Shown here piece by piece: positions 261-59,939 of a stretch of DNA of 59,939 bases; within the stretch, counting starts at the first letter, position 1; every line of letters starts with the position of its first letter. Made by a program: the position numbers and the translations under genes. The notes below the pieces were generated by a model. The model did no database searches. It worked only from the letters and a program-made list of their open reading frames with translations, and had not been told where the DNA came from. This DNA is from an uncultured Desulfobacterales bacterium (GTDB lineage Bacteria; Desulfobacterota; Desulfobacteria; Desulfobacterales; Desulfococcaceae), in assembly GCA_964534335.1 (NCBI GenBank), contig CAZHPS010000001.1:1-59939 (forward strand), written 5' to 3'.

Positions 261-387
261 ATACCAATTCACTATTGGTTTTATACAATCCGGAGGAGTG
301 CAAAAATTAAGCGGAGCGTTTTTTTGCAAACACACTCAGCAGCGGAAAAACTGACGGTATTGTATAAAACCAATGGCGAACCGGTAT
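261..387 (+). mobile_element. MITE-like repeat, family R3 copy 1 (TIR ATACCnATTCnCnnTTG; internal GTGCAAAAA-N14-TTTTTGCAC hairpin)
   Basis: Near-identical copies at 49131..49265 (same orientation) and 43575..43700 (inverted). Termini are reverse complements. Lies 25 bp upstream of the methyltransferase start. Confidence 0.6.
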
Positions 388-1918: not shown

Positions 1919-4900
1919 AAATACAAAATATTCGTTTTCAGAATATCAGCACACTAAAAGGACAGTGGGAAATCGCTTTTGACCGATCTCCGTTTGCGGA
2001 GTCCGGAATTTTTGCCATCACCGGCCCCAACGGCGCAGGAAAAACCACAATTCTTGATTCGCTCACACTGGGACTTTACGGCGAAACCCCCCGTCTGAAG
2101 AATCCCGGAGAGGAAATCATGACACGGGACTGTGCTGAAACCTCCTCTGAAGTCACTTTTTCCGTCAATGATGCCATTTACCGTTCCCAATGGCAGATCC
2201 GCAGAAAAGGGGGAAAAACCAATCCGCCTGAAATGAAACTCTTTTCCCTTAACGGCCATGAAACGCTTATGGATGACAGGCCTGCGGCAGTCCGCAGCCG
2301 GATTGCGGAACTCACAGGGCTGGATTTCAAACGCTTCTGCCGCTCTGTCATGCTGGCACAGGGGGAATTTGCCGCTTTTCTCCATGCCCTTGATACAGAA
2401 CGATCTGAAATTCTCGGAAAGATTATCGGCCCTGAAGTCCGGTCTGAATATGTCCGGCAAACCCTGCTGAAAGCTGACAGCGAAAATGAGAAATTTCTGC
2501 GTATGAAAGAAGAGACAGAGAAGTTTCCCCTGCCTGATCCGGGTACGGTAAGGGAAAAACAGGAAAGTCTTGCCCTTGTTCTGGATCAGTTGGAAGAAAC
2601 AGAACATGAACTGTCCGTGCTGGAGCAGAAAAAAGAGAGTTTTGAAACACGGGAACGTCTGCAAAAGGAGTATGAAAATGCCAGCCTGTCTCTGGCAGCA
2701 GCCACAGCGCGTCAGGAAGAAATGCAGGAACAGTTCCGGAAACTGGTCAAAGCCATAAAAGCCGTTCCCCTTCAGGCAGATATGGAAAGTCTTATTTCTC
2801 TGGAGACAGCAGAAGGTGCGGCAGGGAAAATGCTGGAAGAACAGATCTCCGGAATTCCGCTTACTGAGGATCAGCTTATGTCCCTGAATGAAAGGGAAAA
2901 GCAGCATCAGGCAGAACTGGAGCAGGTTCGCGGGATGTGGAATGAACAGAAGGAATTCATTGAAAAAGCACTGGAAATCACGCGGGAGATGGAATCAGCC
3001 ACATATGATTTCAGGAAAAAAGTGGAACGGTATGAAGCTTTGGAAAAAGAGCAGAACCTGAATCTGCAGGAACAGAATGAACTGAAAAACCGGATTGCGG
3101 AAAATGAAACCGCAGAGAAAGAAATCGGAAAGTGGCTCGCTGACAGGGCAGCAGATCGGGAACTGGAAACAGAGATTCCGCTTATCCGGGAGGCTGTGGA
3201 AAATCTGGGACGTATCCGTTCGGAACTGGCTGAAGCAGGAAAACAGCATTCAGAAGCCCTGAAAGCCGAAGAAAAAGCAGCGAAAATTTTCGGAAAAGCT
3301 GAGCGTGTGATTACAGTCATCCGGGAAAAGCGGGAAAAAATCAGTCTCAGGGGCATGGAAAGAGAAAACACTGTCCGGGAACTGCTGGGCAGTGATTCCC
3401 TGGAAGATATTGAAAACCGGTATAAAACGCAGAAAGAAAAACTGTGCGCCGCAAAAAAACTCCTGTCCATCAGCAAAGATTATGTCAAACAACTGGCAGC
3501 AAACGGCGGAAGACGGCAGAAACTGGAAGAGGAACTGAGTGCGGCAGAATCCCAATATGCTGATTTGTCACAGCAGCTCCTGCAGGAAGAGAATATTTAT
3601 ATTACGCTGAATCATGCCAATGCTGCCCTGAAATATGAATCAGAACGGGCTTTGCTGAAAACAGGGGAGCCATGTCCTATGTGCGGTTCCCCGGATCATC
3701 CCTTTGTCACGCACGGACTTCCTTATGAGGGTGATCCCCGTAAAGCACTCAAAGATCAGGAAGAGCGGATAAATACTATCCGGAAACAGATGGACAGACT
3801 TTCAGATGAGATCGAAAATCTGCGGAAACAGAGCAGGAAAACCGAAATCCTGCGGGAGGAATGGGACAGACTGTTCAGAAATATTGGTCAGGACTGGGTG
3901 ATTGAAGATGTGAAAACCGTCAAAAATGGCTTCCGGGAACTGAAAAAAGAAACCCGCAAACAGAAAATCCATTTCAAGGCTGTGTACAAACATGGAAAAA
4001 AGGCAGAGAAATATCAAAGGGCTGTTCAGAAAAAAACTGACAAACTCAATGAAAAACAGATGGTGGCAGAGAGACTGCGGAATGATCTGAATATTCAGCA
4101 GGGTATCACAGCAACTCTGGCCAGGGCGGCAGAGGAGATTCAGAACCGGGAACATGCACAGATTCAGAATCTGCAGGAGAAAGTGAAAAAATACGGTTAT
4201 GAAATTCCAGCACCCGGAAAAGAGAATATTCTGCTGCCGGATATGGAAAAAAAGCGGGATGTATTTCTGGAAAAGGTTCAGACGCAGGCCGGTCTGAAAA
4301 ACATAGCGGAAGAATTGTCCCAAAAAGCCCGGATTCTGCCGGAATCCCTGAAAATGCTGAAAAAAGAGGCAGATGATCTGGAAGAAAAGATCAGAACCGC
4401 GCAGGAAAAACTCACAGAACTGGAAATCCGGAGGAAAGAGGTCTTTGATTCCGGTGACCCGGTGCAGGTGAAACAGGAACTCGAAGACGCTATCCGTGCA
4501 AAAACAGAAGAACTGGCTGAAATTATTCAGGAGAAGGAAAATGCAGATCAGAAACTGGCTGATATGCGGCAAAAGAAGGAACTGGCTGAATCTGAATATA
4601 AGCGTTTGCAGAGAGAGAAGAAAAATCTGGAGCATGGCCTGAGTGCCAAATCTCTGGCAGCGGGGTTCAGCAGCATTGAGGAAGTAAGGGAAAATCTGAT
4701 GCCTGCTGAAGAGCAGGATCGCATTGCAGCACTGCAGAAAGAGATGGAACAGGCCGTTGCTGAAAACAGGGCCGGAGTTGACAGTATCCGGGAAATGCTC
4801 GCTGCTGAATCCGCGTATCAGGAACAGACTGAATCTCCTGATATTGTCCATGAGAAAATCCGTGAAACCCGGAAAATACGGGACAGACTGGCCGGAGAAT

Positions 4901-5499: not shown

Positions 5500-5517
5500 G
5501 ACTGATTGCAGATCATA

Positions 5518-5619
5518 TTTTTGGAGCCTCATCTCCAAAATTTGGAGTTTTCTGCATACAGAAAAAACAAACATTCTGTTTACTCCAAAATTTGCAGGAA
5601 ACTTTTAACATAATGATTA
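5518..5619 (+). repeat. About 103-bp dispersed direct repeat, copy 1 (TTGGAGCCnCATCTCCAAAATTTGGAGTTTTCTGCATACAG...TAATGATTA)
   Basis: Second copy at 10747..10849 in the same orientation with a handful of mismatches. The two copies bracket the C10 peptidase gene. Confidence 0.7.
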
Positions 5620-5759
5620 GGTAGTGGGTCAAACCGGTTGATCTGATGCCAGCACCGGGACGGAAAAAATTCGCAAGGATTGATATTATTACAGAAAAAA
5701 TCTGAAAAAACAAATCAGAATTCCGGAAGGGATGACATTATCAACTGGTTTGACCCACC
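5620..5759. mobile_element. 140-bp MITE-like element with about 22-bp TIR GGTAGTGGGTCAAACCnGTTGAT
   Basis: The left end GGTAGTGGGTCAAACCGGTTGAT and right end ATCAACTGGTTTGACCCACC are reverse complements. The terminal GGTAGTGGGTC is shared with the 5864, 26091 and 59370 elements. Confidence 0.6.
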
Positions 5760-5777
5760 AAAAAATTCTTGTAGCAT

Positions 5778-5793
5778 TGGCACCATATTTGCA
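5778..5793 (+). promoter_or_regulatory. sigma54-type -24/-12 promoter motif TGGCACcatatTTGCA
   Basis: Matches TGGCAC-N5-TTGC exactly and points toward the C10 peptidase gene. The flanking sequence is homologous to the tandem promoter units at 10998..11364. Confidence 0.45.
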
Positions 5794-5863
5794 TGTAAAA
5801 CCGCAGGGATTTTATATAAGAAGGGGTTTCAAAGAATCAGCAATCCCTGCTTATAAAAAATTC

Positions 5864-6098
5864 GGTAGAGGGTCTACACGAACTGATTAAAATTTAACTG
5901 CTTTATATTATTATGTTTTTATAGAATACAGATTTTTATCTATACATAATAAATACAAATAGTTATATGATACTCCATGATACTTTTCATACTGATTTTT
6001 TGTAATATTAATATATTGATTTATAAATTAAAAAAATCAGTAAAAACATAATAATATAAAGCAGTTAAATTTTAATCAGTTCGTGTAGACCCACTACC
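5864..6098. mobile_element. 235-bp AT-rich palindromic MITE (family A copy 1), about 58-bp near-perfect inverted arms starting GGTAGnGGGTCTACACGAACTGATTAAAATTTAAC
   Basis: The arms at 5864-5922 and 6040-6098 are reverse complements with 1-2 mismatches. Related copies at 26091..26285 and 59370..59722. It interrupts the right arm of a hairpin-family unit. Confidence 0.7.
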
Positions 6099-6250
6099 AA
6101 TTTCTGTAGCAGAATCCGGGAATATCTGATTCTTATGTTGTAAATTATCACAGATGGACAACCATTCTGGATTATCCAGTCATTTAATTCCGGATTTTAT
6201 CCTAATAATTTTAATGAGGTATTTTTTAATGGAGTAATGGAGGAAGACAT

Positions 6251-9200
6251 ATGAAAAGGGCAAAGTTAATAATATCTATTTTTTTTATATGGTTAATTTG
6301 CATGGTTAATATGTTGGCAGCTCAAACAACGACCAAAGAACAGGCTGAAACTATTGCAGCCAATCTGCTGACTCTTGACAGCACCCCTTTATCTGCCACA
6401 CTGAGCACTGCAATCGAAAAAACGGAAACATTTTACGATGCAGATGGCATAAATCCCATTTATTATGTCATTTCTTTATCACCCGCCGGATATATAATCA
6501 TTTCGGCAGATGATTTGATTGAGCCTGTCATCGCATTCAGTAGCACAGGAGTATTCGATCTTTCTGCAGAAAATCCGATTATCTCTCTTCTTTTAAATGA
6601 TTTATCTTCAAGAATATCTGAACAGATCGAATTGAATCTTGATAAAAGACTTACCGGAAGAGGGCGTATAACGCCTTCATCACAAAAAGCAAATGAAAAA
6701 TGGACATTCCTGTTAAATTACGATGCATCATTGGATTATGGATTATCCACCATCAATGATCCAAGAGTAACACCTTTGATTCAAAGCAGATGGAGCCAGG
6801 GAACAGTTTCTGGCAATTATTGCTATAATTATTACACACCAAATCATTATCCATGCGGTTGTGTTGCAACTGCCATGTCACAAATTATGCGTTTTTTTAA
6901 TCATCCAAATACCGGAGTCGGCACCCCGTCTTTTAACATTTATGTTGATGGGGTCTCACAGAGCAGGAAGCTGAGAGGTGGCAATGGAAGCGGAGGTGTA
7001 TATAACTGGACCAGTATGCCATTAGTTCCGACTTCGACATCAACAGCCACACAGTTACAGGCAATAGGCACTCTTACCCATGATGCTGGGGTTTCTGTAA
7101 ATATGTCATATACGGACAGCGGTTCGGGAACAGATACGCGTAAAGCGGCGGATGCGTTTGTGAATACCTTTGATTACAGCAATGCCATTAAAGGATATAA
7201 TAACGGCAATACCATTGTATCGTCCGATTTGAATAAAATGATCAATTCAAATTTAAATGCAGGCATACCCGTTATGTTAGGAATTACTGGCACCGCCGGA
7301 GGACATGCCATTGTTGCGGATGGCTATGGGTACCATTTATCTTCTCTATATCATCATTTAAATATGGGGTGGTCCGGCAGTGATGATGCATGGTATAATC
7401 TGCCAAACATTGACAGTAATCCGAGCTTTACAAGTGTTTATAAATGCGTATATAATATATATAATAGTGGAACAGGAGAAATCATCAGCGGCAGAGTGAC
7501 GGATGTAAACGGCAATCCCCTTCAGGGGGCTTCGGTTTTTGCGACTCGCAGCGGTGGCGGCACTTATTCGGATGTCAGCGATGCCAATGGGCTGTATGCC
7601 TTTCCCCGTATTTCTTCGGATTCATCTTATACGATCAGTGCCACAAAGAGCGGTTATACTTTTACATCACAAAATGTTTCCATTCAAAAATCTGTCAATA
7701 ATACATCCGTAACCAATCTCTGGGAAGTCAATTTTGCAGCCGGTGGCATAACAGATGATGCATATGAAAATAATGATACGTTGGCAACGGCTTATGATCT
7801 AAGCACAAAAGAAATAATATGGCTATCTAATATCAATGGGTTAGGCATTCAGGCAGACTCGGACTGGTATAAAATATCCGTAACAGCCGGATATGAACGG
7901 GTACTGATTGATTGCCGGTTTGCGCACTCCTCCGGTGATATTGATATACAATTATACAATGCATCCGGCAGCCTTCTTACTTCATCAAGAAGCCTGAATA
8001 ACAATGAATTTATTGACTACAAGGTTTCTTCTTCAGGAATATACTATATCAGGGTGTTCTATGGCAACGCGGGTAATACATATGATTTGTGGTGGGATGA
8101 CCTACAACCGCCTGTCGCAGATGATAATTATGAAGAAAATGATACAATGGCAACGGCTTATGATCTCAGCAACAGTGAAACTGTATGGCTTTCCAGCATC
8201 AACGGATATGGAATTCAGGGGGACGACGACTGGTATAAAATATATATAACAACTGGATATGAAAGACTATTACTTAACTGCAACTTTACCCATACTGATG
8301 GAAACATTGATATTGCTGTATATAATTCGGCAGGAACGCTGATCAGGTCATCCACAACATTAACCGATAATGAAACAATTGATTTTCTGCTTCCTGCCAG
8401 TGGAACTTATTATATCAGGGTTTACAATGGAAATGCACGCAATACTTATAATCTTCAGTGGGATGATCTCATTGCTTCAAGCGCTGACGATACATATGAA
8501 CAAAATGATTTTATTGATGAAAGTTATGATTTTAGCAATCGTGAAAATACATGGCTCCATACCATCGACGGATATGGCATTCAATCAGATGATGATTGGT
8601 TTAAAATTGATGTCACATCCGGATTCCAACGTGTGCTGGTAGATTGTCGTTTTTTCCATGCTGACGGAGATATTGATATCACTTTGTATGATGCATCAGG
8701 AAACTACCTGACATCATCAAACAGCATCACTGATGATGAGTTTATTGATTATACGGTTTCCGGAGCAGGAACATATTATATTAAAGTATATTATGATGAC
8801 GCCGGTAACACGTATGATCTTTGGTGGGATGATATTTCACCTACTTCGGGGGATGATGCCTATGAACCCAATGACACATATTCATCGGCCTGGACTAATG
8901 GAACAAACTGGGAACAGAAATGGCTTCACCGGGTGAACGGATGGGCAATCCAATGGGACAACGACTGGTATAAAATTGATGTTACCAGCGGATATGAAAG
9001 GCTTTTCATTGAATGTCTTTTTTCAGACACGGATGGCGATATTGATATTGCATTGTATGATTCGTATGGCAACATTCTCACTTCTTCAAGAGGAATTGAG
9101 GATGAAGAATTTATTGATTATACGGTCTCTTCTTCCGGCTCATATTATATTAAGGTTTATTATGACAACGCAGGCAATACATATGATCTTTGGTGGGATG

Positions 9201-10120
9201 ATCTGTCTCTGCTAAACGGTGATGATATTTATGAACAAAATGACACCATCTCGTATGCTTGGTATCCCGGAACAAACTGGGAGCGACAATGGCTGCATAG
9301 CATTTATGGAAGATCTGTACAAAGAGATGAGGATTGGTATAGAATTGATGTTACAGGTGGTTATGAACGTCTGCTGATTAATTGCAAATTTAACCATGAA
9401 GATGGTGACATTGATATTTCCCTTTATAATTCAAACGGTTCTCTTTTAAAATCTTCAAGAAGTTATGATGATGAAGAATTTATTGATTATACTGTGCCGT
9501 CTTCAGGAACATACTATGTGAAAGTGTTTTATGGAAATGGCGGGAATTCTTATGATCTTTGGTGGGATGATGTATCGCCGTCTTCCGGTGATGACGCTTA
9601 TGAAGAGAATGATACTTTGCAGACAGCATATGATATTAGTTCAAAGGAGACAGTATGGTTATCCAATATTAATGGGTTAGGTATTCAGGCGGATAGTGAC
9701 TGGTACAAAATTGCTGTAACACCTGGATATGAAAAGGTTCAGATAGATTGCAGATTCACACATTCTGATGGTGATATAGATGTCTCTTTCTATGATTCAA
9801 CCGGTAATTTTATTACATCCTCAAGAAGCACTGACAATGATGAATTTATCAACTATACAGTTCCAAATTCCGGAACATACTACATTAAGGTGTTTTATGG
9901 AAATACAGGAAATACTTATAATCTATGGTGGGATGATTTAAAAAACAGTATAGGCGATATAAATGGATTAGATGGTGTCAATCTGGCTGATGCCATAATT
10001 GGTTTAAAGATTTTAGCTGGAATAAATTACAGTAATATAAGCATGGGAGCGGATGTAAACAACGATGGCAAAATTGGTATGGAGGAAATTATATATATAT
10101 TGAATACACTTTCTCAATAA
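6251..10120 (+). CDS. Secreted multidomain protein: signal peptide, streptopain-type (C10) cysteine peptidase with propeptide, CarboxypepD_reg-like domain, 6 PPC (pre-peptidase C-terminal) repeats, C-terminal dockerin-like module
   Basis: Signal peptide plus SD GGAGGAAG. C10 hallmarks are QSRWSQG...CGCVATAMSQIMRFF (Cys) and GGHAIVADGYG (His). GRVTDVNGNPLQGASVFA marks the CarboxypepD_reg-like domain. Six repeats of about 118 aa follow, of the form DDxYExND...DxDWYKI...GDIDIxLY...GxYYIxV...YDLWWDD. The end carries DINGLDGVNLADAI / DVNNDGKIGMEEII, which are dockerin Ca-binding loops. Confidence 0.8.
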   Translation: MKRAKLIISIFFIWLICMVNMLAAQTTTKEQAETIAANLLTLDSTPLSATLSTAIEKTETFYDADGINPIYYVISLSPAGYIIISADDLIEPVIAFSSTGVFDLSAENPIISLLLNDLSSRISEQIELNLDKRLTGRGRITPSSQKANEKWTFLLNYDASLDYGLSTINDPRVTPLIQSRWSQGTVSGNYCYNYYTPNHYPCGCVATAMSQIMRFFNHPNTGVGTPSFNIYVDGVSQSRKLRGGNGSGGVYNWTSMPLVPTSTSTATQLQAIGTLTHDAGVSVNMSYTDSGSGTDTRKAADAFVNTFDYSNAIKGYNNGNTIVSSDLNKMINSNLNAGIPVMLGITGTAGGHAIVADGYGYHLSSLYHHLNMGWSGSDDAWYNLPNIDSNPSFTSVYKCVYNIYNSGTGEIISGRVTDVNGNPLQGASVFATRSGGGTYSDVSDANGLYAFPRISSDSSYTISATKSGYTFTSQNVSIQKSVNNTSVTNLWEVNFAAGGITDDAYENNDTLATAYDLSTKEIIWLSNINGLGIQADSDWYKISVTAGYERVLIDCRFAHSSGDIDIQLYNASGSLLTSSRSLNNNEFIDYKVSSSGIYYIRVFYGNAGNTYDLWWDDLQPPVADDNYEENDTMATAYDLSNSETVWLSSINGYGIQGDDDWYKIYITTGYERLLLNCNFTHTDGNIDIAVYNSAGTLIRSSTTLTDNETIDFLLPASGTYYIRVYNGNARNTYNLQWDDLIASSADDTYEQNDFIDESYDFSNRENTWLHTIDGYGIQSDDDWFKIDVTSGFQRVLVDCRFFHADGDIDITLYDASGNYLTSSNSITDDEFIDYTVSGAGTYYIKVYYDDAGNTYDLWWDDISPTSGDDAYEPNDTYSSAWTNGTNWEQKWLHRVNGWAIQWDNDWYKIDVTSGYERLFIECLFSDTDGDIDIALYDSYGNILTSSRGIEDEEFIDYTVSSSGSYYIKVYYDNAGNTYDLWWDDLSLLNGDDIYEQNDTISYAWYPGTNWERQWLHSIYGRSVQRDEDWYRIDVTGGYERLLINCKFNHEDGDIDISLYNSNGSLLKSSRSYDDEEFIDYTVPSSGTYYVKVFYGNGGNSYDLWWDDVSPSSGDDAYEENDTLQTAYDISSKETVWLSNINGLGIQADSDWYKIAVTPGYEKVQIDCRFTHSDGDIDVSFYDSTGNFITSSRSTDNDEFINYTVPNSGTYYIKVFYGNTGNTYNLWWDDLKNSIGDINGLDGVNLADAIIGLKILAGINYSNISMGADVNNDGKIGMEEIIYILNTLSQ
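7751..9945 (+). repeat. Six in-frame tandem repeats of about 354-366 bp encoding the PPC domains
   Basis: Each unit starts at a GATGAT..TATGAA..AATGA (DDxYExND) boundary. The units are diverged, not identical. Confidence 0.8.
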
Positions 10121-10534
10121 GCAATATTTCAACGGCCCCGCGGAAAAAAATTCCCATTCGCGGGTGCTGGAAGGACTGGGCATAAAGAAGATTTATGAAT
10201 GCGACACCTTACCATCAGGCCGAACTTACGCAACTGCTGCAACAGGCCATGATTCAGCGTAGTTATTGCACCGGCATCCCTGTATGCTGAAATTCCACCG
10301 CAGCCAAAAGAAAAAACTGGATTTAAGCCATCTTTTGCTGAAATTGACAACGCAAATGCAGTCTGAAATACGAGTGCATGAAGGAATTAGTGTGTTCCAG
10401 TTTTGCTGTAGATGAACAGGGAAAGGTTTCGGTCAATGAAGCCTTTTGCATCGGCGATCTGTCCTGTAAACAGGTCAGCCCGAAAACAGCTATTGCCTGG
10501 AAAAAGGAGGAGAACGCATGAAATCCAATGATAT

Positions 10535-10684
10535 TAACGATCTAACTTTGGTTTTTTCGGCATAATTTTTGCAGGGCAGTCAGAACCGGAAATCTGACCT
10601 GAAAAACTCTTTGGACAGGCTGAAAAGGCATGTTCCTGATCAAAGGCAATTTCTGTGCCATAAAAAACCAAAGTTGAAACAGTA
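10535..10684. mobile_element. MITE family S copy 1 (TIR TAnnGATCnAAnTTTGGTTTT...; sigma54-like motif inside each terminus)
   Basis: Termini are inverted copies. cGGCATaatttTTGCA lies at 10558-10573 (+) and TGGCACagaaaTTGCC at 10645-10660 (-). TA follows the right end. Relatives at 37040..37134, 59406..59567 and a remnant at 27375..27409. Confidence 0.6.
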
Positions 10685-10746
10685 TATTTTATTTTTTGGA
10701 AAGTCTTTAAAACTGACTGTCTTTATCTTACATCAGTTTTTTGGAG

Positions 10747-10849
10747 CCCCATCTCCAAAATTTGGAGTTTTCTGCATACAGGAAAAACAGACATTCTGCT
10801 TACTCCAAAATTTGCAGGAAATTTTTAACATAATGATTATTCAGAAAAT
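10747..10849 (+). repeat. About 103-bp dispersed direct repeat, copy 2
   Basis: Aligns base for base with 5518..5619 apart from a few substitutions. Confidence 0.7.
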
Positions 10850-11097
10850 ACAGACAGTATGTCTTATTATTCCAAAAGGCATGAGAGTTTGTGCCGGATT
10901 TTGTCTTTCCCCAGCATGGATTTTTTTTGCACTTTTCACCAACTGCAGGGATTTTGCGTAAGAAAGGATTTCAGAAAATCAGCAATTCCTGAAATAACTA
11001 CAGGGATTTTGCATAAGAAAAGATTTGAGGAAATCAGCAATTCCTGCTCACAAAAAATCCTTTCTTATACAAAATCCTTGCAGCACAATCGGTTCTT

Positions 11098-11113
11098 TGG
11101 CACTGTATTTGCA
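11098..11113 (+). promoter_or_regulatory. sigma54-type promoter motif TGGCACtgtatTTGCA (tandem unit 1)
   Basis: Exact TGGCAC-N5-TTGC. The predicted start site, about 11-12 nt after the GC, falls at the first base of the next hairpin (11123). Confidence 0.45.
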
Positions 11114-11222
11114 TAGGAGTAACTACAAGGATTTTGCATAAGAAAGGATTTGAGGAAATCAGCAATTCCTGCTTACAAAAAATCCTTTCTTATCCAAAAT
11201 CCTTGTAGCACAATCGGTTCTC

Positions 11223-11238
11223 TGGCACTGTATTTGCA
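11223..11238 (+). promoter_or_regulatory. sigma54-type promoter motif TGGCACtgtatTTGCA (tandem unit 2)
   Basis: Exact TGGCAC-N5-TTGC, positioned as in unit 1 relative to the hairpin at 11248. Confidence 0.45.
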
Positions 11239-11347
11239 TAGGAGTAACTACAAGGATTTTGCATAAGAAAGGATTTGAGGAAATCAGCAATTCCTGCTTA
11301 CAAAAAATCCTTTCTTATCCAAAATCCTTGTAGCACAATCGGTTCTT

Positions 11348-11363
11348 TGGCACTGTATTTGCA
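11348..11363 (+). promoter_or_regulatory. sigma54-type promoter motif TGGCACtgtatTTGCA (tandem unit 3)
   Basis: Exact TGGCAC-N5-TTGC. This is the last of the tandem copies. Confidence 0.45.
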
Positions 11364-11423
11364 TGTAAACAAACAAAGCGACTTAAAGTTCTTTGTTGTT
11401 TCTGTCTGAACAAACCGATGCTA

Positions 11424-11439
11424 TGGCATAATACTTGCA
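11424..11439 (+). promoter_or_regulatory. sigma54-type promoter motif TGGCATaatacTTGCA, proximal to the PEP-CTERM gene
   Basis: Matches TGGCAY-N5-TTGC, lies outside the tandem units, and sits about 350 nt upstream of the 11791 start. Confidence 0.4.
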
Positions 11440-11491
11440 TATACAAAACCAAGTGGAAACGCCAAATCCTCTGCAAAGCGGAACAGAAAAG

Positions 11492-11575
11492 CAGGTGTCT
11501 GTTACAGACAGTCGCTTTTTAAGAATTTAAGAACAGGTGTCTGTTACAGACAGCCGCTTTTTAAGAATTTAAGAA
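11492..11575 (+). repeat. 2 x 42-bp tandem repeat, each containing the palindrome TGTCTGT-T-ACAGACA
   Basis: Units at 11492..11533 and 11534..11575 differ at one base. Located in the leader between the promoter motifs and the riboswitch-like element. Confidence 0.8.
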
Positions 11576-11701
11576 ATTGACAATATAATAAGGAGGTGTA
11601 CTGGCACTAACGCAATGGAGTAAGACCGTAAGTTTTTGTTTTGTGTGTTTCTGTTTACGTGCATTATTGTCTTTTTTGATATTTCATTTTATTTATTTTT
11701 T

Positions 11702-11776
11702 GAAAAAGCCAAACTCATCGTGAGGTGAGGACGGAAAGCTACGGGTCTTAATGGGTAAGACAGCCGGGTTGCCGAA
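11702..11776 (+). ncRNA. Candidate c-di-GMP-I (GEMM-I) riboswitch
   Basis: GCCAAAC is followed by the hairpin CUCAUC-GUGA-GGUGAG, which has a GNRA tetraloop. Then come GGACGGAAAGCUACGGGUC, the hairpin GUCUUA-AUGGG-UAAGAC, and CAGCCGGGUUGCCGA. From memory, this parallels Vc2 segments GGCAAACC, GGGACGCAAAGCCUCCGGCC and GGUAGCGGGGUUACCGA. It sits immediately 5' of the SD AAGGAGG and the ATG at 11791. Confidence 0.55.
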
Positions 11777-11790
11777 TTAAGGAGGCAGCT

Positions 11791-12399
11791 ATGAAAAAGT
11801 TTTTGATTTCAATTTGTATGGTGGTTTTGGTTTTTGGTCTTGTAAATAATGCAAATGCTTTAAGTTATTATATAAGCGATGTTGTTGCTGAGTATGAGTA
11901 TAGTGGAACGTATTTGTTTACTGTTACAAATCCCAATAATGATCCGGGAGTGACAGGGAATTTTGAAGAAGATAATCTTGAAGCAGCTTTGGAATCCTGG
12001 TTTACTGCTAATGCCTATGCAGCTAAAGATGTTGAATTAACCTATTACGATAGGGTTGATTATCCGGACATGGCCTCATCTTTAATGTCTGTGGAGTATG
12101 ATGAATCCCCTCGTGGAACTTGGTCTACCGGTGATCAGGCAATAGAATATTACACGGTTAAAGCTTCAACTGGATACGCAATTTACTGGCTTGGTGAACA
12201 AGGAGCATCTTCCGGGAATTGGACAACAGAGCATTTACTGGCTGGCAAGAATGGAAATATTCCCACAGTATCGCATCTGACCACTTTCAATCCTATTGGC
12301 GATCCCGGAACAAACCCGGTTCCTGAGCCCGCCACCATGTTCCTGCTTGGCAGCGGACTGGTCGGTGCCGGTGTTTTCAGACGGAAAAGAAGCAAATAG
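11791..12399 (+). CDS. Secreted PEP-CTERM sorting-domain protein
   Basis: N-terminal signal peptide. The C-terminus VPEPATMFLLGSGLVGAGVFRRKRSK has the PEP motif, a TM helix and a basic tail. Strong SD. Confidence 0.85.
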   Translation: MKKFLISICMVVLVFGLVNNANALSYYISDVVAEYEYSGTYLFTVTNPNNDPGVTGNFEEDNLEAALESWFTANAYAAKDVELTYYDRVDYPDMASSLMSVEYDESPRGTWSTGDQAIEYYTVKASTGYAIYWLGEQGASSGNWTTEHLLAGKNGNIPTVSHLTTFNPIGDPGTNPVPEPATMFLLGSGLVGAGVFRRKRSK

Positions 12400-25825: not shown

Positions 25826-26090
25826 ATCCGCTCTCCTTTCTCAGATTCGTTTTTCAATTTTCCCGCTCTGCGCCCCTGAATCCGACGCATTCTTCTTAAT
25901 CTGCCGAAATACGCAAACGAATTTTTTGATCATTTATATTTCAGAGTTCCATGTGTTTACTTGTCCGAACGATTCAGACATGGTGTAATTCGATCAATTT
26001 TTTTGGAAAAACAACTGAATTCACATTACACAAATTTGAAATATCAGATATTATTAATTTTAAATTATCAATTTAGGAGTTACGCAGTTG

Positions 26091-26285
26091 GGTATTGGGT
26101 CTGCACGAACTGATTAAAATTTAACTATCTTATATTATTATGTTTTCAAAAAAAATGCTGATTTTTTTGTCTATATATAATAAATACAAATAGTTATACG
26201 ATACATCCATGATACTGCTTATACTGATTATAAATAACATATTGATTTATATATTAAAAAAATCAGCATGAGAAGTCCCACTACC
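26091..26285. mobile_element. MITE family A copy 2 (195 bp, short TIR GGTAnTGGGnC only)
   Basis: Shares GGTATTGGGTCTGCACGAACTGATTAAAATTTAAC, the AT-rich core and ...GTCCCACTACC with 5864..6098 and 59370..59722. Confidence 0.65.
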
Positions 26286-27374: not shown

Positions 27375-27409
27375 TAATGTTTCAACTTTTTTTGGCATGA
27401 TTTTTGCGG
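27375..27409 (+). repeat. Solo terminus remnant of MITE family S carrying TGGCATgatttTTGC (27393..27407)
   Basis: TTCAACTTTTTTTGGCATGATTTTTGCGG aligns with the left terminus of 59406..59567. No matching right end is nearby. Confidence 0.4.
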
Positions 27410-27410
27410 T

Positions 27411-30067: not shown

Positions 30068-31774
30068 TTATGAACTGCTTTTCCGTTCATAAACAGCCAC
30101 ATCCGCGCAGTTGGGGTAGATTTTGAGCAGTTCCAGAAAAAAGACACTGGTACCGTATTCAAAGGGCCGGGTTGTGCCTTCCTCTATTTCGGAAAAACGC
30201 CGCAGACCCAGTCGCGGATGGGTGACATCAATCACGGCCACACCTGGGGAATTCGGTTCATCCGAAGGATAAATATCCACCAGCCGCACCAAAATCTGAC
30301 TGGAGAGAAAATGTACAGTGTTCTGCCTGTTTTTGCACAAAGTTTTCACAGAAATTCCATTTTTTTCCGTTTCCTGCAGTGCATTGATATCCTGGCCCGT
30401 CAGCATGTTATCGGGTATGGCAAAAACAGGGGGGTTTTCCTCTTTCGTATTTGCCGGTTCCATTTTTGCCGGTTCCGGTTTTGGAGGCTCCGGTTTTGGA
30501 GGTTCTGTTTTAGGAGGCTCTGTTTTAGGAGGCTCTGTTTTAGGAGGCTCTGTTTTAGGAGGTTCCATTTTTGGAGGCCCTGTTTTAGGAGGCTCTGTTT
30601 TCGGCAGCTCCGTTTTTGGAGGTTCTGTTTCTGGCTGTTCCATTTTTTTTATTTCTTCTCTTTTTTGGGCAAGGAGAGCAATAACAGTATCCATTTTCCG
30701 GGCAACCGGATATGCATCCTTCATCGTATAGGATTTCATCAACCCGGCCTTCAGATTTTCTGCTTTTTCTGTAAGTTCCTTTCGCTCAGAATCAGAAATT
30801 TTTTTGCCCTGTATTTTTATGTATTCTGCAATTTTATCAATCATTTTCTCAAGAAGCCCCATCAATTTTTCTGTATCTCTCACTTCCCTGTTTTTTATGG
30901 CATCAGCCAGACCATCAAGGAGATCTCCCAGTTTTTTTGTAACCGGTGATACATCTTTTCTTGAATAAATTTCTGCAAAATCTGTAATTTGAGTTATCTT
31001 TCCGATAATGCCGGATTCTGCTTTGTCATTTATGAAAATGATAAGATTGTCCAATTTTTCGGCAATCGGATAGGCATCATCCATCAGATAGAATTTCAGA
31101 CTCTCTTTCAGAGTTTCTGTTTTCCGTGTAAGATAACTCTTTTCGGAATCGGCCATTTTATCCCTTTGTATATTTATACATTCCATTATCTTATCTGTCA
31201 TTACCCCCAAATCGTCCATTACTTTTTTTGTATCCTGTATTTTATTCTCTGTTATTGCATTAGCCAGCTCATCAAGCAGTTTCCCAAGTTTTTTCGTAAC
31301 CAGAGACGTGTCTTCCCGTGAATACATTGCCGCTACATCTACAATTTCAGATATTATATCAGCAATATTTTTGGAATCTTCAAATTTTGTTTTTTTTTCA
31401 GCCTCAGTTTCAGCCGGATTGTCCTCATCTTTTACTGAAGAAGCTGCTGTGAATTTTGTTTCTTTTTCAGCCGGACTGTCCTCATCTTTTACTGAAGACT
31501 CTGGTGCAGATTTTGTTTGTTTTTCATATGCAGCCTGACTGTATTCATGTTTTACAGAAAAAGCCGGTGCCGGTTTTGTTGCTTTTTCAGTTTCAGATTT
31601 GATTTCTGTTTCCGTTCCCCCCGGTATTGACAGTCTGCTTATTTTTTCAGGATCTCTGCGATCCATAATAATCAGCAGATATATAAGCATGATAAGAATA
31701 AACACTGCCAAAATGGCAATTTTCACCAATATGGAATCCCGTTCATCTGATCCGTTTTTTTTCTCATCATCCAT
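30068..31774 (-). CDS. Single-pass membrane protein with two helical repeats of about 120 aa, a (P-P-K-T-E)n rod and a C-terminal globular domain of unknown function
   Basis: TM helix ILVKIAILAVFILIMLIYLLII. Internal duplication (VTKKLGKLLDELANAI... / VTKKLGDLLDGLADAI...). The rod reads ETEPPKTELPKTEPPKTGPPKMEPPKTEPPKTEPPKTEPPKTEPPKPEPPKPEP. Confidence 0.7.
   Translation of the reverse strand: MDDEKKNGSDERDSILVKIAILAVFILIMLIYLLIIMDRRDPEKISRLSIPGGTETEIKSETEKATKPAPAFSVKHEYSQAAYEKQTKSAPESSVKDEDSPAEKETKFTAASSVKDEDNPAETEAEKKTKFEDSKNIADIISEIVDVAAMYSREDTSLVTKKLGKLLDELANAITENKIQDTKKVMDDLGVMTDKIMECINIQRDKMADSEKSYLTRKTETLKESLKFYLMDDAYPIAEKLDNLIIFINDKAESGIIGKITQITDFAEIYSRKDVSPVTKKLGDLLDGLADAIKNREVRDTEKLMGLLEKMIDKIAEYIKIQGKKISDSERKELTEKAENLKAGLMKSYTMKDAYPVARKMDTVIALLAQKREEIKKMEQPETEPPKTELPKTEPPKTGPPKMEPPKTEPPKTEPPKTEPPKTEPPKPEPPKPEPAKMEPANTKEENPPVFAIPDNMLTGQDINALQETEKNGISVKTLCKNRQNTVHFLSSQILVRLVDIYPSDEPNSPGVAVIDVTHPRLGLRRFSEIEEGTTRPFEYGTSVFFLELLKIYPNCADVAVYERKSSS
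30455..30640. repeat. 15-bp periodic tandem repeat (about 12 units) encoding the PPKTE rod
   Basis: GGAGGCTCTGTTTTA and variants are repeated head to tail on the plus strand. Confidence 0.8.
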
Positions 31775-31820
31775 GATGCAAGCCTCCGTTTATGGCAACT
31801 ATCTGAAACAGCACAAATAT

Positions 31821-33443
31821 TTATATTTTTGACAGAAGTTCCTGTTTTCTCTTTTCCAGTTCGCTTTCGGCAGGTATTTTCTGATCTTCTGCTTTCTGCT
31901 CTGCCGGAGGAGGAATTTTCGGCGCAGCAGGCGTTTCCGCAGAAGATGGTTTCGGCACAGATTCCCCTGCCGGAGCAGCAGTTTTATGCTCTGGCTGCTG
32001 AGGAATTTTCGGAGCAGGCGTTTCCGCAGGCATTGGTTTTGGAGCAGATTCTCCCGGAGCAGGCGCAGGTTTGGATTCATGCTGCGGAGAAATTTTCGGC
32101 GCAGATGGCGCGGGCATTGGTTTTGGAACAGATTCTCCGCCCGGAGCAGGCCCAGGTTTGGATTCAGACTGCGGAGGCGTTTTCAGCGCAGATGGCGCGG
32201 GCATTGGTTTTGGAGCAGATTCTCCCCCCGGAGCAGGCCCAGGTTTGGATTCATGCTGCGGAGAAATTTTCGGCGCAGATGGCGCAGGCATTGGTTTTGG
32301 AGCAGATTCTCCCCCCGGAGCAGGCCCAGGTTTGGGTTCAGGCTGCGGAGGCGTTTTCGGCGCAGATGGCGGCGCGGGTGTATCCGCAGGCACTGGTTTT
32401 GGAGCAGATTCTCCGCCCGGAGCAGGCCCAGGTTTGGGTTCAGGCTGCGGAGGCATTTTCGGCACAGATGGCGCAGGTGTTTCCGCAGGCATTGGTTTTG
32501 GAGAAGATTCCCCGCCCGGAGCAGGCCCAGTTTTGGATTCAGGCTGCGGAGGCATTTTCGGCGCAGATGGCGCTGGTATATCCGCAGGCACTGGTTTTGG
32601 CGCAGATTCCCCGCCCGGAGCAGGCCCAGGTTTGGGTTCATGCTGTGGAGGCATTTTCGGCGCAGGCGGGACATCCTGAGATACAGGTTTCAAAGTCGGC
32701 TCCGGATTTGTTTTTCCGCCTGCATTTTCCGCAGACTTAGGGACATCCACTTTTTTCTGAGCAGGAACCGGGATATTCGGTGCCATATTCTCCAGCATGG
32801 CGGAAATATCCGCCATATGCTTCTGATGCAGATTTTTGATTTCCTCCACCATATCTTTGATCGTGGCAGGATCTGCTTTGCTCTCGTAAAGTTTCTGATA
32901 TACAGTCCTGATCTCTTCCCCATGCTTGAACAGACTGTTAATCATTTTGGACAAATCATTGAGCATAATCTGCATATCCTGATTCATAGAGGTGCGGTTG
33001 CATTCATAAAGTTTCTGATGCACAGCACTGATATCTTTCACCTTTCCGGCCAGATGCTCAATTCTTTCAGACAGAGCGTCCATCATCATCTGCATATCTT
33101 CGGTCAGCAGAGTGCGGGAATTCTCCGACACCTTGACAGAAAGGGAATTTATCTGTCCGGAAAGATCCCCCACAGATTTCTGAATCCCCTGCATTGACTC
33201 AATCCTGGCTTCGAGCTTGGCGGCAAGTTCCGACAGTTTGGCCTGAACTGCCGCTATATTTCCTGTCTGCGCGGAAATCGAATCCAGTTTGGCCGCAACC
33301 GGTTTTAAATCCACAGGAGGCGGTTTGGTCCCTTTGTGCTTTTTCTCAAACTGATATATTTCCCAGCAGATAAGCACCAGCAGAATAAAAACGATAATGA
33401 TGATGAAAGTGAAAAATTCACTGACAGTCAGCATACTGCTCAT
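31821..33443 (-). CDS. Single-pass membrane protein with helical repeats and about 8 Pro-rich repeats of 26-35 aa (PKMPPQPEPKPGPAPGGESAPKPxPA...)
   Basis: N-terminal TM helix FFTFIIIIVFILLVLICW. Duplicated MQxMxDxLS...VxQKLYE blocks. The C-terminal half is almost entirely P/A/G/E/K/S repeats. Confidence 0.7.
   Translation of the reverse strand: MSSMLTVSEFFTFIIIIVFILLVLICWEIYQFEKKHKGTKPPPVDLKPVAAKLDSISAQTGNIAAVQAKLSELAAKLEARIESMQGIQKSVGDLSGQINSLSVKVSENSRTLLTEDMQMMMDALSERIEHLAGKVKDISAVHQKLYECNRTSMNQDMQIMLNDLSKMINSLFKHGEEIRTVYQKLYESKADPATIKDMVEEIKNLHQKHMADISAMLENMAPNIPVPAQKKVDVPKSAENAGGKTNPEPTLKPVSQDVPPAPKMPPQHEPKPGPAPGGESAPKPVPADIPAPSAPKMPPQPESKTGPAPGGESSPKPMPAETPAPSVPKMPPQPEPKPGPAPGGESAPKPVPADTPAPPSAPKTPPQPEPKPGPAPGGESAPKPMPAPSAPKISPQHESKPGPAPGGESAPKPMPAPSALKTPPQSESKPGPAPGGESVPKPMPAPSAPKISPQHESKPAPAPGESAPKPMPAETPAPKIPQQPEHKTAAPAGESVPKPSSAETPAAPKIPPPAEQKAEDQKIPAESELEKRKQELLSKI
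31901..32672. repeat. Imperfect tandem DNA repeats of about 90 or 105 bp encoding the Pro-rich region
   Basis: TTCGGCGCAGATGGCGC...CCCGGAGCAGGCCCAGGTTTGG recurs about 8 times. It generates long spurious ORFs in several frames on both strands. Confidence 0.8.
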
Positions 33444-37039: not shown

Positions 37040-37134
37040 TACTAATCCAATTTTGGTTTTTTGTGGCACAGAAGCTGCTTTAAGTGTCAGTCAGAGCAGT
37101 TTCTGTGCCATAAAAAATCAAAACTAGATCATTA
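37040..37134. mobile_element. MITE family S copy 2 (95 bp)
   Basis: TIR TACTAATCCAATTTTGGTTTT / AAAATCAAAACTAGATCATTA. TGGCACagaagCTGC at 37064-37078 (+) and TGGCACagaaaCTGC at 37096-37110 (-). TA precedes the left end. Confidence 0.6.
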
Positions 37135-43574: not shown

Positions 43575-43700
43575 ATACCGATTCGCCATTGGTTTGATCC
43601 AATACCGTCAGTTTTTCCGCAGTTCCGGCTGTGCAGAAAACCGCTCCGCTTAATTTCTGCACTCCTCCGGATCAGCATCAGTTCAATGGAGAATCGGTAT
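43575..43700 (-). mobile_element. MITE family R3 copy 3 (inverted)
   Basis: ATACCGATTCGCCATTGG...CAATGGAGAATCGGTAT. The interior is the reverse complement of 49131..49265. Confidence 0.6.
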
Positions 43701-49130: not shown

Positions 49131-49265
49131 ATACCGATTCACTGTTGACCTGATACTATCCGGACTGATCCGGAGGAGTGCAAAAATTAGGCGGAGCGGT
49201 TTTTTGCACACCCGGAACTGCGGAAAAACTGACGGTATCGGATCAAACCAATGGCGAATCGGTAT
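49131..49265 (+). mobile_element. MITE family R3 copy 2
   Basis: ATACCGATTCACTGTTG...CAATGGCGAATCGGTAT. Located between convergent and divergent large genes. Confidence 0.6.
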
Positions 49266-59136: not shown

Positions 59137-59364
59137 TTACTTCAGCAGAAAAATCAAAACAGCAATCATGACCGTCAGCAATGAACCGTAAAAAACGATT
59201 ATGGTCTGTGAAAACAGGGTTGCAGGCCATATATTTTTTCCACCGATAAATGCCTGCGGATTCATACTGAAATCAATTTCTTTTTCCTCTTTTTTGCGAA
59301 CATCATTATACTGATCCAATTTTGTTTTTTTTGGCACGATTCTTGCGTAGACATATTCATTCAA
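59137..59364 (-). CDS. Possible small tail-anchored membrane protein
   Basis: 75-aa ORF with one C-terminal TM helix (IIVFYGSLLTVMIAVLIFLL). No homology recognised. Confidence 0.3.
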   Translation of the reverse strand: MNEYVYARIVPKKTKLDQYNDVRKKEEKEIDFSMNPQAFIGGKNIWPATLFSQTIIVFYGSLLTVMIAVLIFLLK

Positions 59365-59369
59365 ATATT

Positions 59370-59722
59370 GGTAGTGGTCTGCACGAACTGATTAAAATTT
59401 AACTATACTGATCCAATTTTGGTTTTCTTTGGCATGATTTTTGCCTGACGTGCTGAAAGTGAAAAAACATCCGTTTTTGGCCTGAAAAACCCCGCAGACG
59501 GGCTGAAAAAAACTGTTTGGGCGCATAGGCAATTTCCGTGCCAAAGAAAACCAAAATTGGATCAGTATATCTTATATTATTATGTTTTTAAAAAATGCTG
59601 ATTTTTGTCTATACATCATAAATACAAACAGTTATACGATACATCCATGATACTGCTTATACTGATTACAAATAACATATTGATTTATATATTAAAAAAA
59701 TCAGTATGAGAATCCATCTACC
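59370..59722. mobile_element. MITE family A copy 3, interrupted by a nested family S MITE
   Basis: GGTAGTGG-TCTGCACGAACTGATTAAAATTTAAC...GAGAATCCATCTACC is collinear with 26091..26285 except for a 164-bp insertion after AACTA. Confidence 0.7.
59406..59567. mobile_element. MITE family S copy 3 (162 bp), nested, with TA target-site duplication
   Basis: TIR TACTGATCCAATTTTGGTTTTCTTTGGCA / TGCCAAAGAAAACCAAAATTGGATCAGTA. TA lies at 59404-05 and 59568-69, where the uninterrupted copy (26091..) has a single TA. TGGCATgatttTTGC at 59430-44 (+) and TGGCACggaaaTTGC at 59529-43 (-). Confidence 0.75.
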
Positions 59723-59939
59723 CAAATATTATTTGAAATTTTTCAACCATCAGTTTTTTTAATTTATCAATATGATCTCCGGTATTATTCAGAAACTGAA
59801 AAATTTTTGGACGGAATACTTTGTATTCCTTATAATATTTGTTTTTTGCCAGATGCTCTTTGGCATATTTCCAAATAATATTTGTTTTTTGCCAGATGCT
59901 CTTTGGCATATTTCCAAAAACGTTCAGTCAGATTCAGAT
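59718..59939 (-). pseudogene. IS630-family transposase C-terminal end (runs off the window), frameshifted by a 43-bp tandem duplication
   Basis: The minus strand reads LNLTERFWKYAKEHLAKNKYY, which matches my recollection of the IS630 C-terminal motif NLIERLWK..K......YY. Units 59833-59875 and 59876-59918 are identical 43-mers (43 mod 3 = 1). Removing one restores ...KNKYYKEYKVFRPKIFQFLNN.... Confidence 0.6.

Follow-up and report, generated by a model that had tools for sequence, protein, structure and literature searches.

The REP, BIME and REPIN repeats of Enterobacteria and Pseudomonas are short intergenic palindromes that occur in many copies, form clusters of alternating orientation as well as tandem arrays, and become part of neighbouring mRNAs. 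The Correia element of Neisseria is a promoter-bearing MITE (miniature inverted-repeat transposable element), a palindromic mobile repeat that alters the expression of adjacent genes and forms a long hairpin in transcripts. Integron attC sites are imperfect palindromes of 60–100 bp with an outer box, a partly unpaired spacer, an inner box and a variable loop, and the Qrr small RNAs of Vibrio are conserved Hfq-dependent RNAs from dispersed genes with their own terminators. Upstream of PEP-CTERM protein genes, Haft et al. 2006 (PMC1569441) described a 17-nt motif 1, which ends in TTTACA and lies ~63 nt upstream of a sigma-54 motif, and a mean promoter-to-start-codon distance of 71. Here we analyse a tandem array of hairpins and sigma-54 promoter motifs in a 59,939-nt stretch of DNA (the window; contig CAZHPS010000001.1) from an uncultured Desulfobacterales bacterium. 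The array occupies part of a 1.67-kb noncoding gap between a C10 peptidase gene (6251–10120) and a PEP-CTERM protein gene (11791–12399). We propose that it is probably a native sigma-54 promoter that was amplified in tandem together with a generic palindromic intergenic repeat; no new regulatory RNA class is involved.

The core of the array, at 10995–11369, consists of three 125-bp units preceded by a half unit, and a fourth promoter motif follows downstream:

10941–10991, forward strand: half unit, a left hairpin arm and part of the loop, seen in repeat searches and arm alignment
10995–11119, forward strand: unit 1, hairpin 10998–11083 (4 stem mismatches), then sigma-54 motif P1 at 11098–11112
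11120–11244, forward strand: unit 2, hairpin 11123–11208 (1 stem mismatch), then sigma-54 motif P2 at 11223–11237
11245–11369, forward strand: unit 3, hairpin 11248–11333, then sigma-54 motif P3 at 11348–11362, then unique sequence
11424–11438, forward strand: sigma-54 motif P4, TGGCATAATACTTGC, with one mismatch, by position the ortholog of the single promoter of the related locus L076 (see below)

The initial annotation had described three tandem 125-bp modules of hairpin plus sigma-54 element, and Tandem Repeats Finder (10995–11364, period 125, 3.0 copies, 97% matches, score 698), a repeat search (three 125-nt copies, 100/95/93% identity) and a motif scan all recovered them. Tandem Repeats Finder also reported the half unit, as a 55-bp repeat of 1.9 copies at 10941–11046. 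The three 86-nt hairpin stretches are self-complementary, one unit folds as RNA with −42.6 kcal/mol (z = −7.4), and 7 hairpin arms lie within 10940–11340. Some details had to be adjusted. The annotated 29-bp stem with a single mismatch describes units 2 and 3 but not unit 1, which has four; 6 positions distinguish unit 1 from the other two, which differ from each other at a single position. Likewise, the start predicted to fall on the first base of the next hairpin does so for P1 and P2 but not for P3, which unique sequence follows. Small open reading frames (ORFs) within the units (38–44 aa, TTG starts) were rejected as by-products of the repeat without usable ribosome-binding-site spacing.

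The promoter motifs are close to consensus. TGGCAC-N5-TTGC is exact at 11098, 11223 and 11348, one in each unit as annotated (the flanking text differs in unit 2, which reads CTGGCAC, not TTGGCAC), and again at 5778, and the annotated fourth motif at 11424 is present with one mismatch. Across the whole window we counted 16 matches with ≤1 mismatch versus 4.9 ± 2.1 in shuffled sequence, and none of 100 shuffles reached 16. The GG and GC dinucleotides lie ten bases apart, as in sigma-54 promoters, and near-consensus motifs are kept upstream of orthologous or homologous PEP-CTERM genes at five other loci (L076, L006, L073, L004 and L075), in agreement with the annotation of these elements as sigma-54 promoters.

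Comparison with relatives indicates which part of the cassette is native to the locus. The Obg protein of the organism is 88% identical to that of a Desulfococcaceae metagenome-assembled genome (MAG) and ~70% identical to those of Desulfonema species, which places the organism in the Desulfococcaceae. Locus L076, from the Desulfococcaceae MAG CA_2019_TPIn_113, is syntenic, with the same 1194-aa SbcC-like gene, an 846-bp spacer and the PEP-CTERM gene. Its spacer aligns to window 10732–10927, 11424–11493 and 11576–11780, and L076 3684–3754 is the part aligned with 11424–11493. Its single promoter, TGGCACTGTATTTGCAT, has 17 nt identical to the core of P1–P3 and a downstream flank equal to that of P4. 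We found no hairpin arm at the L076 locus even at E ≤ 1; the same MAG carries hairpins elsewhere (L022, L039). The more distantly related homolog L073 contains three TGTCG-N6-TTTACA sites and shows the order sigma-54 promoter, riboswitch (28 nt later) and PEP-CTERM gene, without hairpins. A third relative is represented by L006 and L007, assemblies of it from different studies, with the same upstream dyads as the window, 11 arms (L006 3497–4060), two promoters, TGGCATAATGTTTGCAT, and a 248-bp duplication of promoter plus repeat of its own. L006 also has a 53-bp half-unit duplication similar to the half unit of the window. The presence or absence of arms at orthologous sites (0 in L076, 7 in the window, 11 in L006) is a pattern known from MITEs. 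One of the two possibilities raised at the outset had been amplification of an enhancer-binding-protein operator plus promoter cassette; seen against the hairpin-free L076, a promoter cassette has indeed been amplified, but the hairpin is not supported as its operator.

The hairpin itself belongs to a dispersed family. Its arm is bipartite, with A(T/C)A(A/T)CTRCARGGATT, a T/G-rich spacer of 5–6 nt and then TAAGAAAGGATT. A scan for the inner palindrome AAGAAAGGATTT-N10-40-AATCCTTTCTT, covering a single genome of each species, gave 55 places; 17 lay in 10 Desulfobacterales MAGs and 1 in a Parabeggiatoa MAG, and all 18 of these loci had the full arm on both sides of a variable loop. An arm profile found mostly facing +/− pairs, often 2–4 hairpins per locus and 4–8 arms in several loci. 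Apart from overlaps with some mechanically listed ORFs the arms are intergenic, between genes of every orientation, and the neighbours are unrelated, among them ftsY, cytochrome bd subunit II, murJ, a rhomboid protease and TPR, RHS and dockerin proteins. Dispersed intergenic copies, a hairpin-forming pair of inverted motifs, and clusters or tandem arrays are features of REP, BIME and REPIN repeats. Occurrence at unrelated sites irrespective of gene orientation, which the initial annotation had named as one mark of a purely selfish repeat, is thus observed for the hairpin part and not for the promoter part. Copies within one genome have their loops and even asymmetric spacer mismatches in common, as is typical of an element that spreads in one piece. 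The palindrome itself includes the flanks (AA...TT or AT...AT), and no target-site duplication was established. At a permissive threshold Rfam returned only microRNA-precursor hairpin models, far below their thresholds; literature on Desulfobacterales repeats and on sigma-54 promoters on repeat elements held nothing specific, and a full-text search for the box sequences gave unrelated primers and similar text only. This palindromic family is shared across Desulfobacterales, and we found no description of it in Rfam or in the literature searched. The two invariant boxes in each arm point to a protein that recognises or moves the repeat.

Several further observations concern the surroundings of family hairpins. 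In L014, two matches just over threshold to the Acido-Lenti-1 RNA (RF01687), at 100–144 on the reverse strand and 258–302 on the forward strand, adjoin a family hairpin. Repeats of the AATCC...GGTTCAGAC type lie beside hairpins in several other loci. Hairpins or hairpin pairs also flank single ORFs in a cassette-like manner in L052 (2203–3258), L032 (3037–4043) and L028 (1361–3334), and the flanked ORFs encode a PDDEXK_3 protein, a dockerin protein and a 587-aa protein of no known kind.

Could the hairpin, with its four GGATT boxes in each palindrome, be the operator (upstream activating sequence) of an enhancer-binding protein, amplified with the promoter? In favour of such a role, the conserved GGATT boxes, two in each arm, are spaced 17 bp from each other, the centre of a palindrome lies ~82 bp upstream of each predicted start, and at six junctions 3 or 14 nt separate the end of a right arm from the −24 element. 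However, when we searched for sigma-54-like motifs (GG-N10-GC with ≤2 mismatches to the consensus) within ≤150 nt of arms, we found 5 in the window and 2 in L006 but none in the 18 other loci (11.9 kb), compared with 0.29 per kb elsewhere there. A metagenome scan for the junction of hairpin end and promoter (AAAATYCYTGYAG-N2-15-TGGCAY-N5-TTGCA) revealed no further cassettes; its 10 matches were all due to chance, most of them in apparent coding sequence and none with a significant arm. As the orthologous L076 promoter has an identical core and no hairpin, and as it is the block of dyads, not the hairpin, that is conserved upstream in all four copies, we consider the operator role, one of the proposals of the initial annotation, distinctly unlikely.

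We also weighed whether the hairpin was recruited as a working cis element of the leader, either as an RNA stabiliser or RNase III site or as a bendable or cruciform DNA spacer, so that selection favoured amplification of hairpin and promoter alike. Its position is suggestive: the predicted starts of P1, P2 and the L006 promoter at 3729 coincide with the first base of a hairpin, and that of the promoter at 5778 lies ~3 nt inside one. Three changes between unit 1 and units 2 and 3 all restore pairs. Among 35 hairpins, 91.4% of cells were paired over 28 pairs, with covariation above that of all 500 shuffles. The same alignment showed two invariant boxes, a spacer unpaired in 16–45% and covariation limited to a few positions, which speaks for sequence conservation or recent spread rather than structural selection. 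An asymmetry of G:U versus A:C was rejected as a sign of RNA-level selection, since the numbers are small (7 to 1 at one pair, 5 to 5 at a second) and the strand of each copy is arbitrary. An RNA selected only for its shape accounts for the pairing pattern less well than a palindromic DNA repeat whose boxes are sequence-specific. Moreover, the hairpin just after the first L006 promoter has the TTGCAT spacer of the window units, indicating that the promoter–repeat junction is homologous in the two lineages and that the junctions all go back to one event. In addition, P3 and P4 have no intact hairpin downstream, and L076 and L073 appear to manage without hairpins. Recruitment as a cis element is thus rather unlikely.

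In the other possibility raised at the outset, each unit would be a sigma-54-dependent small-RNA gene in a tandem, Qrr-like array. A near-consensus promoter and a very stable hairpin in each unit are what prompted this proposal. No terminator-like site was found between 10941 and 11440, so P1–P3 transcripts should continue into the riboswitch and the gene downstream. The hairpin moreover occurs without a promoter in many genomes and in both orientations, no Rfam family was matched, and P3 lacks a downstream hairpin. We therefore abandoned the small-RNA proposal as extremely unlikely.

The array differs between populations. L002, an independent assembly from another study, is 99.3% identical downstream and breaks inside the array, where the unique sequence GTAAACAAAC directly follows a unit that bears the four bases diagnostic of unit 1. 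As this junction is absent from the window, the L002 population has either fewer units or a recombined array. A short-read assembly artefact over the 125-bp repeat, affecting the copy number or part of the array, would account for the L002 break and junction as well as for the single difference between units 2 and 3. Yet the 6 positions that set unit 1 apart make at least two different units genuine; L001, which is 100% identical to the window and may come from the same reads, carries the identical array, and the more complex L006 array is exactly reproduced in L007 from another study. We consider such an artefact quite improbable. A further reading makes the array a contingency locus, in which the variable copy number of sigma-54 promoters would set promoter dosage and a 5′ hairpin would stabilise the message. 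Expansion and contraction, of the kind seen between the window, L002, L006 and L076, would then be frequent and driven by the repeats. The outcome would be heritable, reversible variation in how strongly a surface PEP-CTERM protein, which a riboswitch of the cyclic-dinucleotide type gates as well, is expressed. At present we regard a contingency locus as unlikely.

Overall, we favour, with moderate confidence, a model of tandem triplication, where a native promoter was multiplied with an unrelated repeat, each 125-bp cassette consisting of ~39 nt of native promoter DNA (roughly −38 to +1) and one 86-bp palindromic repeat. The ancestral order would be that of L076, with a dyad block, one sigma-54 promoter, a c-di-GMP-I-GGC riboswitch and the PEP-CTERM gene. 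Repeats would have inserted around the promoter and left ~39 nt of it between two hairpins, after which recombination or slippage multiplied promoter and repeat, with independent extension in two lineages. The dyad block and part of the array may then have been copied in front of the C10 peptidase gene, followed by insertion of other small repeats at 5620–5759 and 5864–6099. In the present arrangement, an enhancer-binding protein at the dyad block would activate up to four co-directional promoters, P1–P4, and all transcripts would be long leaders that pass the remaining cassettes, then the riboswitch, and enter the gene. Those from P1 and P2 would begin at the foot of a 29-bp stem, which could shield their 5′ ends or be a target of RNase III. 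What changes overall is probably the promoter dosage, not the kind of product. If so, a generic repeat can capture and multiply a tightly regulated promoter and thereby change enhancer-dependent output while the regulator is left untouched.

Several points weigh against this model. All promoter–repeat junctions descend from one ancestral junction, so their adjacency is uninformative on any selected role of the hairpin, and the better stems of units 2 and 3 relative to unit 1 may reflect selection on pairing. The copy number rests on one short-read sequence of a 125-bp repeat and is thus uncertain. We found neither rpoN nor a cognate activator in the window, and no RAYT (Y1 transposase) or other transposase among 20 ORFs adjoining hairpins in 8-kb stretches. 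The dyads lie 290–615 bp from the promoters, farther than most known enhancers, and the first dyad was flagged as terminator-like and may instead be a weak terminator of the upstream gene. Finally, firing of P1–P4 is a prediction from sequence for an uncultured organism.

The regulatory region upstream of the array exists in two copies, one on either side of the C10 peptidase gene:

10732–10927, forward strand: conserved upstream block with two dyads, CTCCAAAATTTGGAG (10753–10767) and CTCCAAAATTTGCAG (10803–10817), a candidate enhancer region where a bacterial enhancer-binding protein would bind
5533–5597, forward strand: the dyad pair again, here upstream of the C10 peptidase gene
5760–5863, forward strand: partial cassette copy with the end of a right arm, sigma-54 motif 5778–5792, and a left arm with loop

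The upstream block aligns to L006 and L076 at ~71–74%, and in the scans made the dyads were restricted to these loci and the two window copies. The L076 dyads read CTGCAAAATTTGGAG and CTCCAAAATTTGCAG. Their separation is 50 bp in the window and L006 and 30 bp in L076, a difference of 20 bp or about two helical turns. Together, these features make it moderately likely that the conserved dyad block, rather than the hairpin, is the enhancer; the assignment goes no further because the first dyad is terminator-like and directly follows the stop codon of the upstream gene in two loci.

Window 10732–10839 and 5512–5619 are 93% identical, a segmental duplication that brackets the C10 peptidase gene. 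The homologous unit annotated upstream of this gene is real, at 5760–5863, but it is not intact, being flanked and cut by the inserted repeats 5620–5759 and 5864–6099. The syntenic loci L006 and L076 lack the C10 peptidase, which therefore appears to have been inserted together with a regulatory-region copy; co-regulation of the peptidase and PEP-CTERM genes may follow from this. The two inserted repeats are MITE-like, with long inverted ends that start GGTAG(T/A)GGGTC, and further insertions of this kind lie at 26088–26266, 59363–59404 and 59572–59706.

For motif 1 we used the pattern TGTCG-N6-TTTACA, inferred from L073 (4 sites), L074 and the text of PMC1569441, and found no match with ≤2 mismatches in 10120–11790, whereas L073 and L074 have the motif. 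A PrsR "PEP-CTERM box" was accordingly rejected here, and the window lacks genes for PrsK, PrsR and PrsT: its kinase scores 83.8 bits versus a PrsK cut-off of 300. A PAS/AAA+/HTH_8 activator is encoded near the PEP-CTERM homolog in L006 and is not PrsR (289.9 bits versus a cut-off of 502.6).

Downstream of P4, the leader continues into the gene:

11487–11570, forward strand: two 42-bp direct repeats, each with a perfect palindrome TGTCTGTTACAGACA, seen by Tandem Repeats Finder and repeat search
11699–11777, forward strand: c-di-GMP-I-GGC riboswitch aptamer (RF03167), which ends just before the ribosome-binding site
11791–12399, forward strand: PEP-CTERM protein gene, 202 aa (PF07589, TIGR02595), served by the whole leader

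The riboswitch matched model positions 1–80 with 72.2 bits (gathering score 59, E = 3.4e-15). The class was also found in L006 (4177–4255, 73.5 bits) and L073 (1654–1731, 69.1 bits), and the L076 leader that aligns to the riboswitch region of the window (~3898–3976) was counted among its sites. In this PEP-CTERM gene family the variant riboswitch lies directly before the start codon and always 3′ of a sigma-54 promoter, an arrangement that suggests two-layer control. To our knowledge, the ligand of the c-di-GMP-I-GGC variant class has not been established. The loci provide this class with a gene context and point to a PEP-CTERM gene family under joint control by sigma-54 and the riboswitch in several uncultured sulfate reducers. 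Neither L006 nor L076 has the 42-bp direct repeats. In the window they overlap a sigma-70-like promoter (TTAAGA-17-TATAAT, 11561–11589), and the TGTCTGTTACAGACA palindromes have their centres ~51 and ~93 bp upstream of its predicted start.

Other repeats were seen in the window. A second family of 85–165 bp, at 10535–10685, 59405–59570, 37040–37125 and 59303–59345 and in part at 27380–27410, has terminal inverted repeats ATACTGATCCAATTTTGGTTTTCTT-TGGCAY-N5-TTGC, each with an inward-pointing sigma-54 motif. Its −24/−12 bases are invariant and the N5 is variable, as for working promoters, and such close convergent promoters are odd. A ~40-bp repeat, 92–95% identical, is common to L076 (3215–3254) and the window (292–328, 43629–43668 and 49172–49210). 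Long in-frame tandem repeats at 30450–30634 (periods 15/45 bp) and 31408–32668 (87/99/174 bp) lie in adjacent ORFs on the reverse strand (30068–31774 and 31821–33443) without a meaningful Pfam match, and a perfect 43-bp direct repeat of 2.0 copies is found at the very end of the window (59832–59918).

How, then, does the array compare with the systems described? With the Qrr genes it shares several sigma-54 promoters of near-identical sequence, but it has no terminators and its hairpin is a generic genomic repeat. The palindrome is built like attC, and in L052 and L032 single ORFs sit between pairs of hairpins; the AAC/GTT triplets, invariant at the outer boxes of attC, are, however, missing in an ATCTAC...GTAGAT subfamily (L012, L023, L034, L049 and L051), and we therefore rejected an attC reading. 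Unlike integrons, the loci also displayed no integrase or cassette array. The Correia element offers an analogy in its small palindromic repeat, long hairpin and presence/absence polymorphism at orthologous sites, whereas here a sigma-54 promoter that is native to the locus lies outside the repeat, with no target-site duplication established. Likeness to the REP, BIME and REPIN repeats extends to all the features named for them at the outset. Unlike theirs, the arm is 30 nt long and A+T-rich, with no small palindrome of its own, two GGATT boxes and a semi-variable spacer of 5–6 nt; its boxes are conserved across many genera rather than species-specific, and none of the 20 neighbouring ORFs encodes a RAYT. 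The locus as a whole resembles the PEP-CTERM region of PMC1569441 in its single-gene operon, long noncoding upstream region and sigma-54 −24/−12 motif, and differs from it in that the promoters lie 350–690 nt from the start codon, with a riboswitch between promoter and gene.

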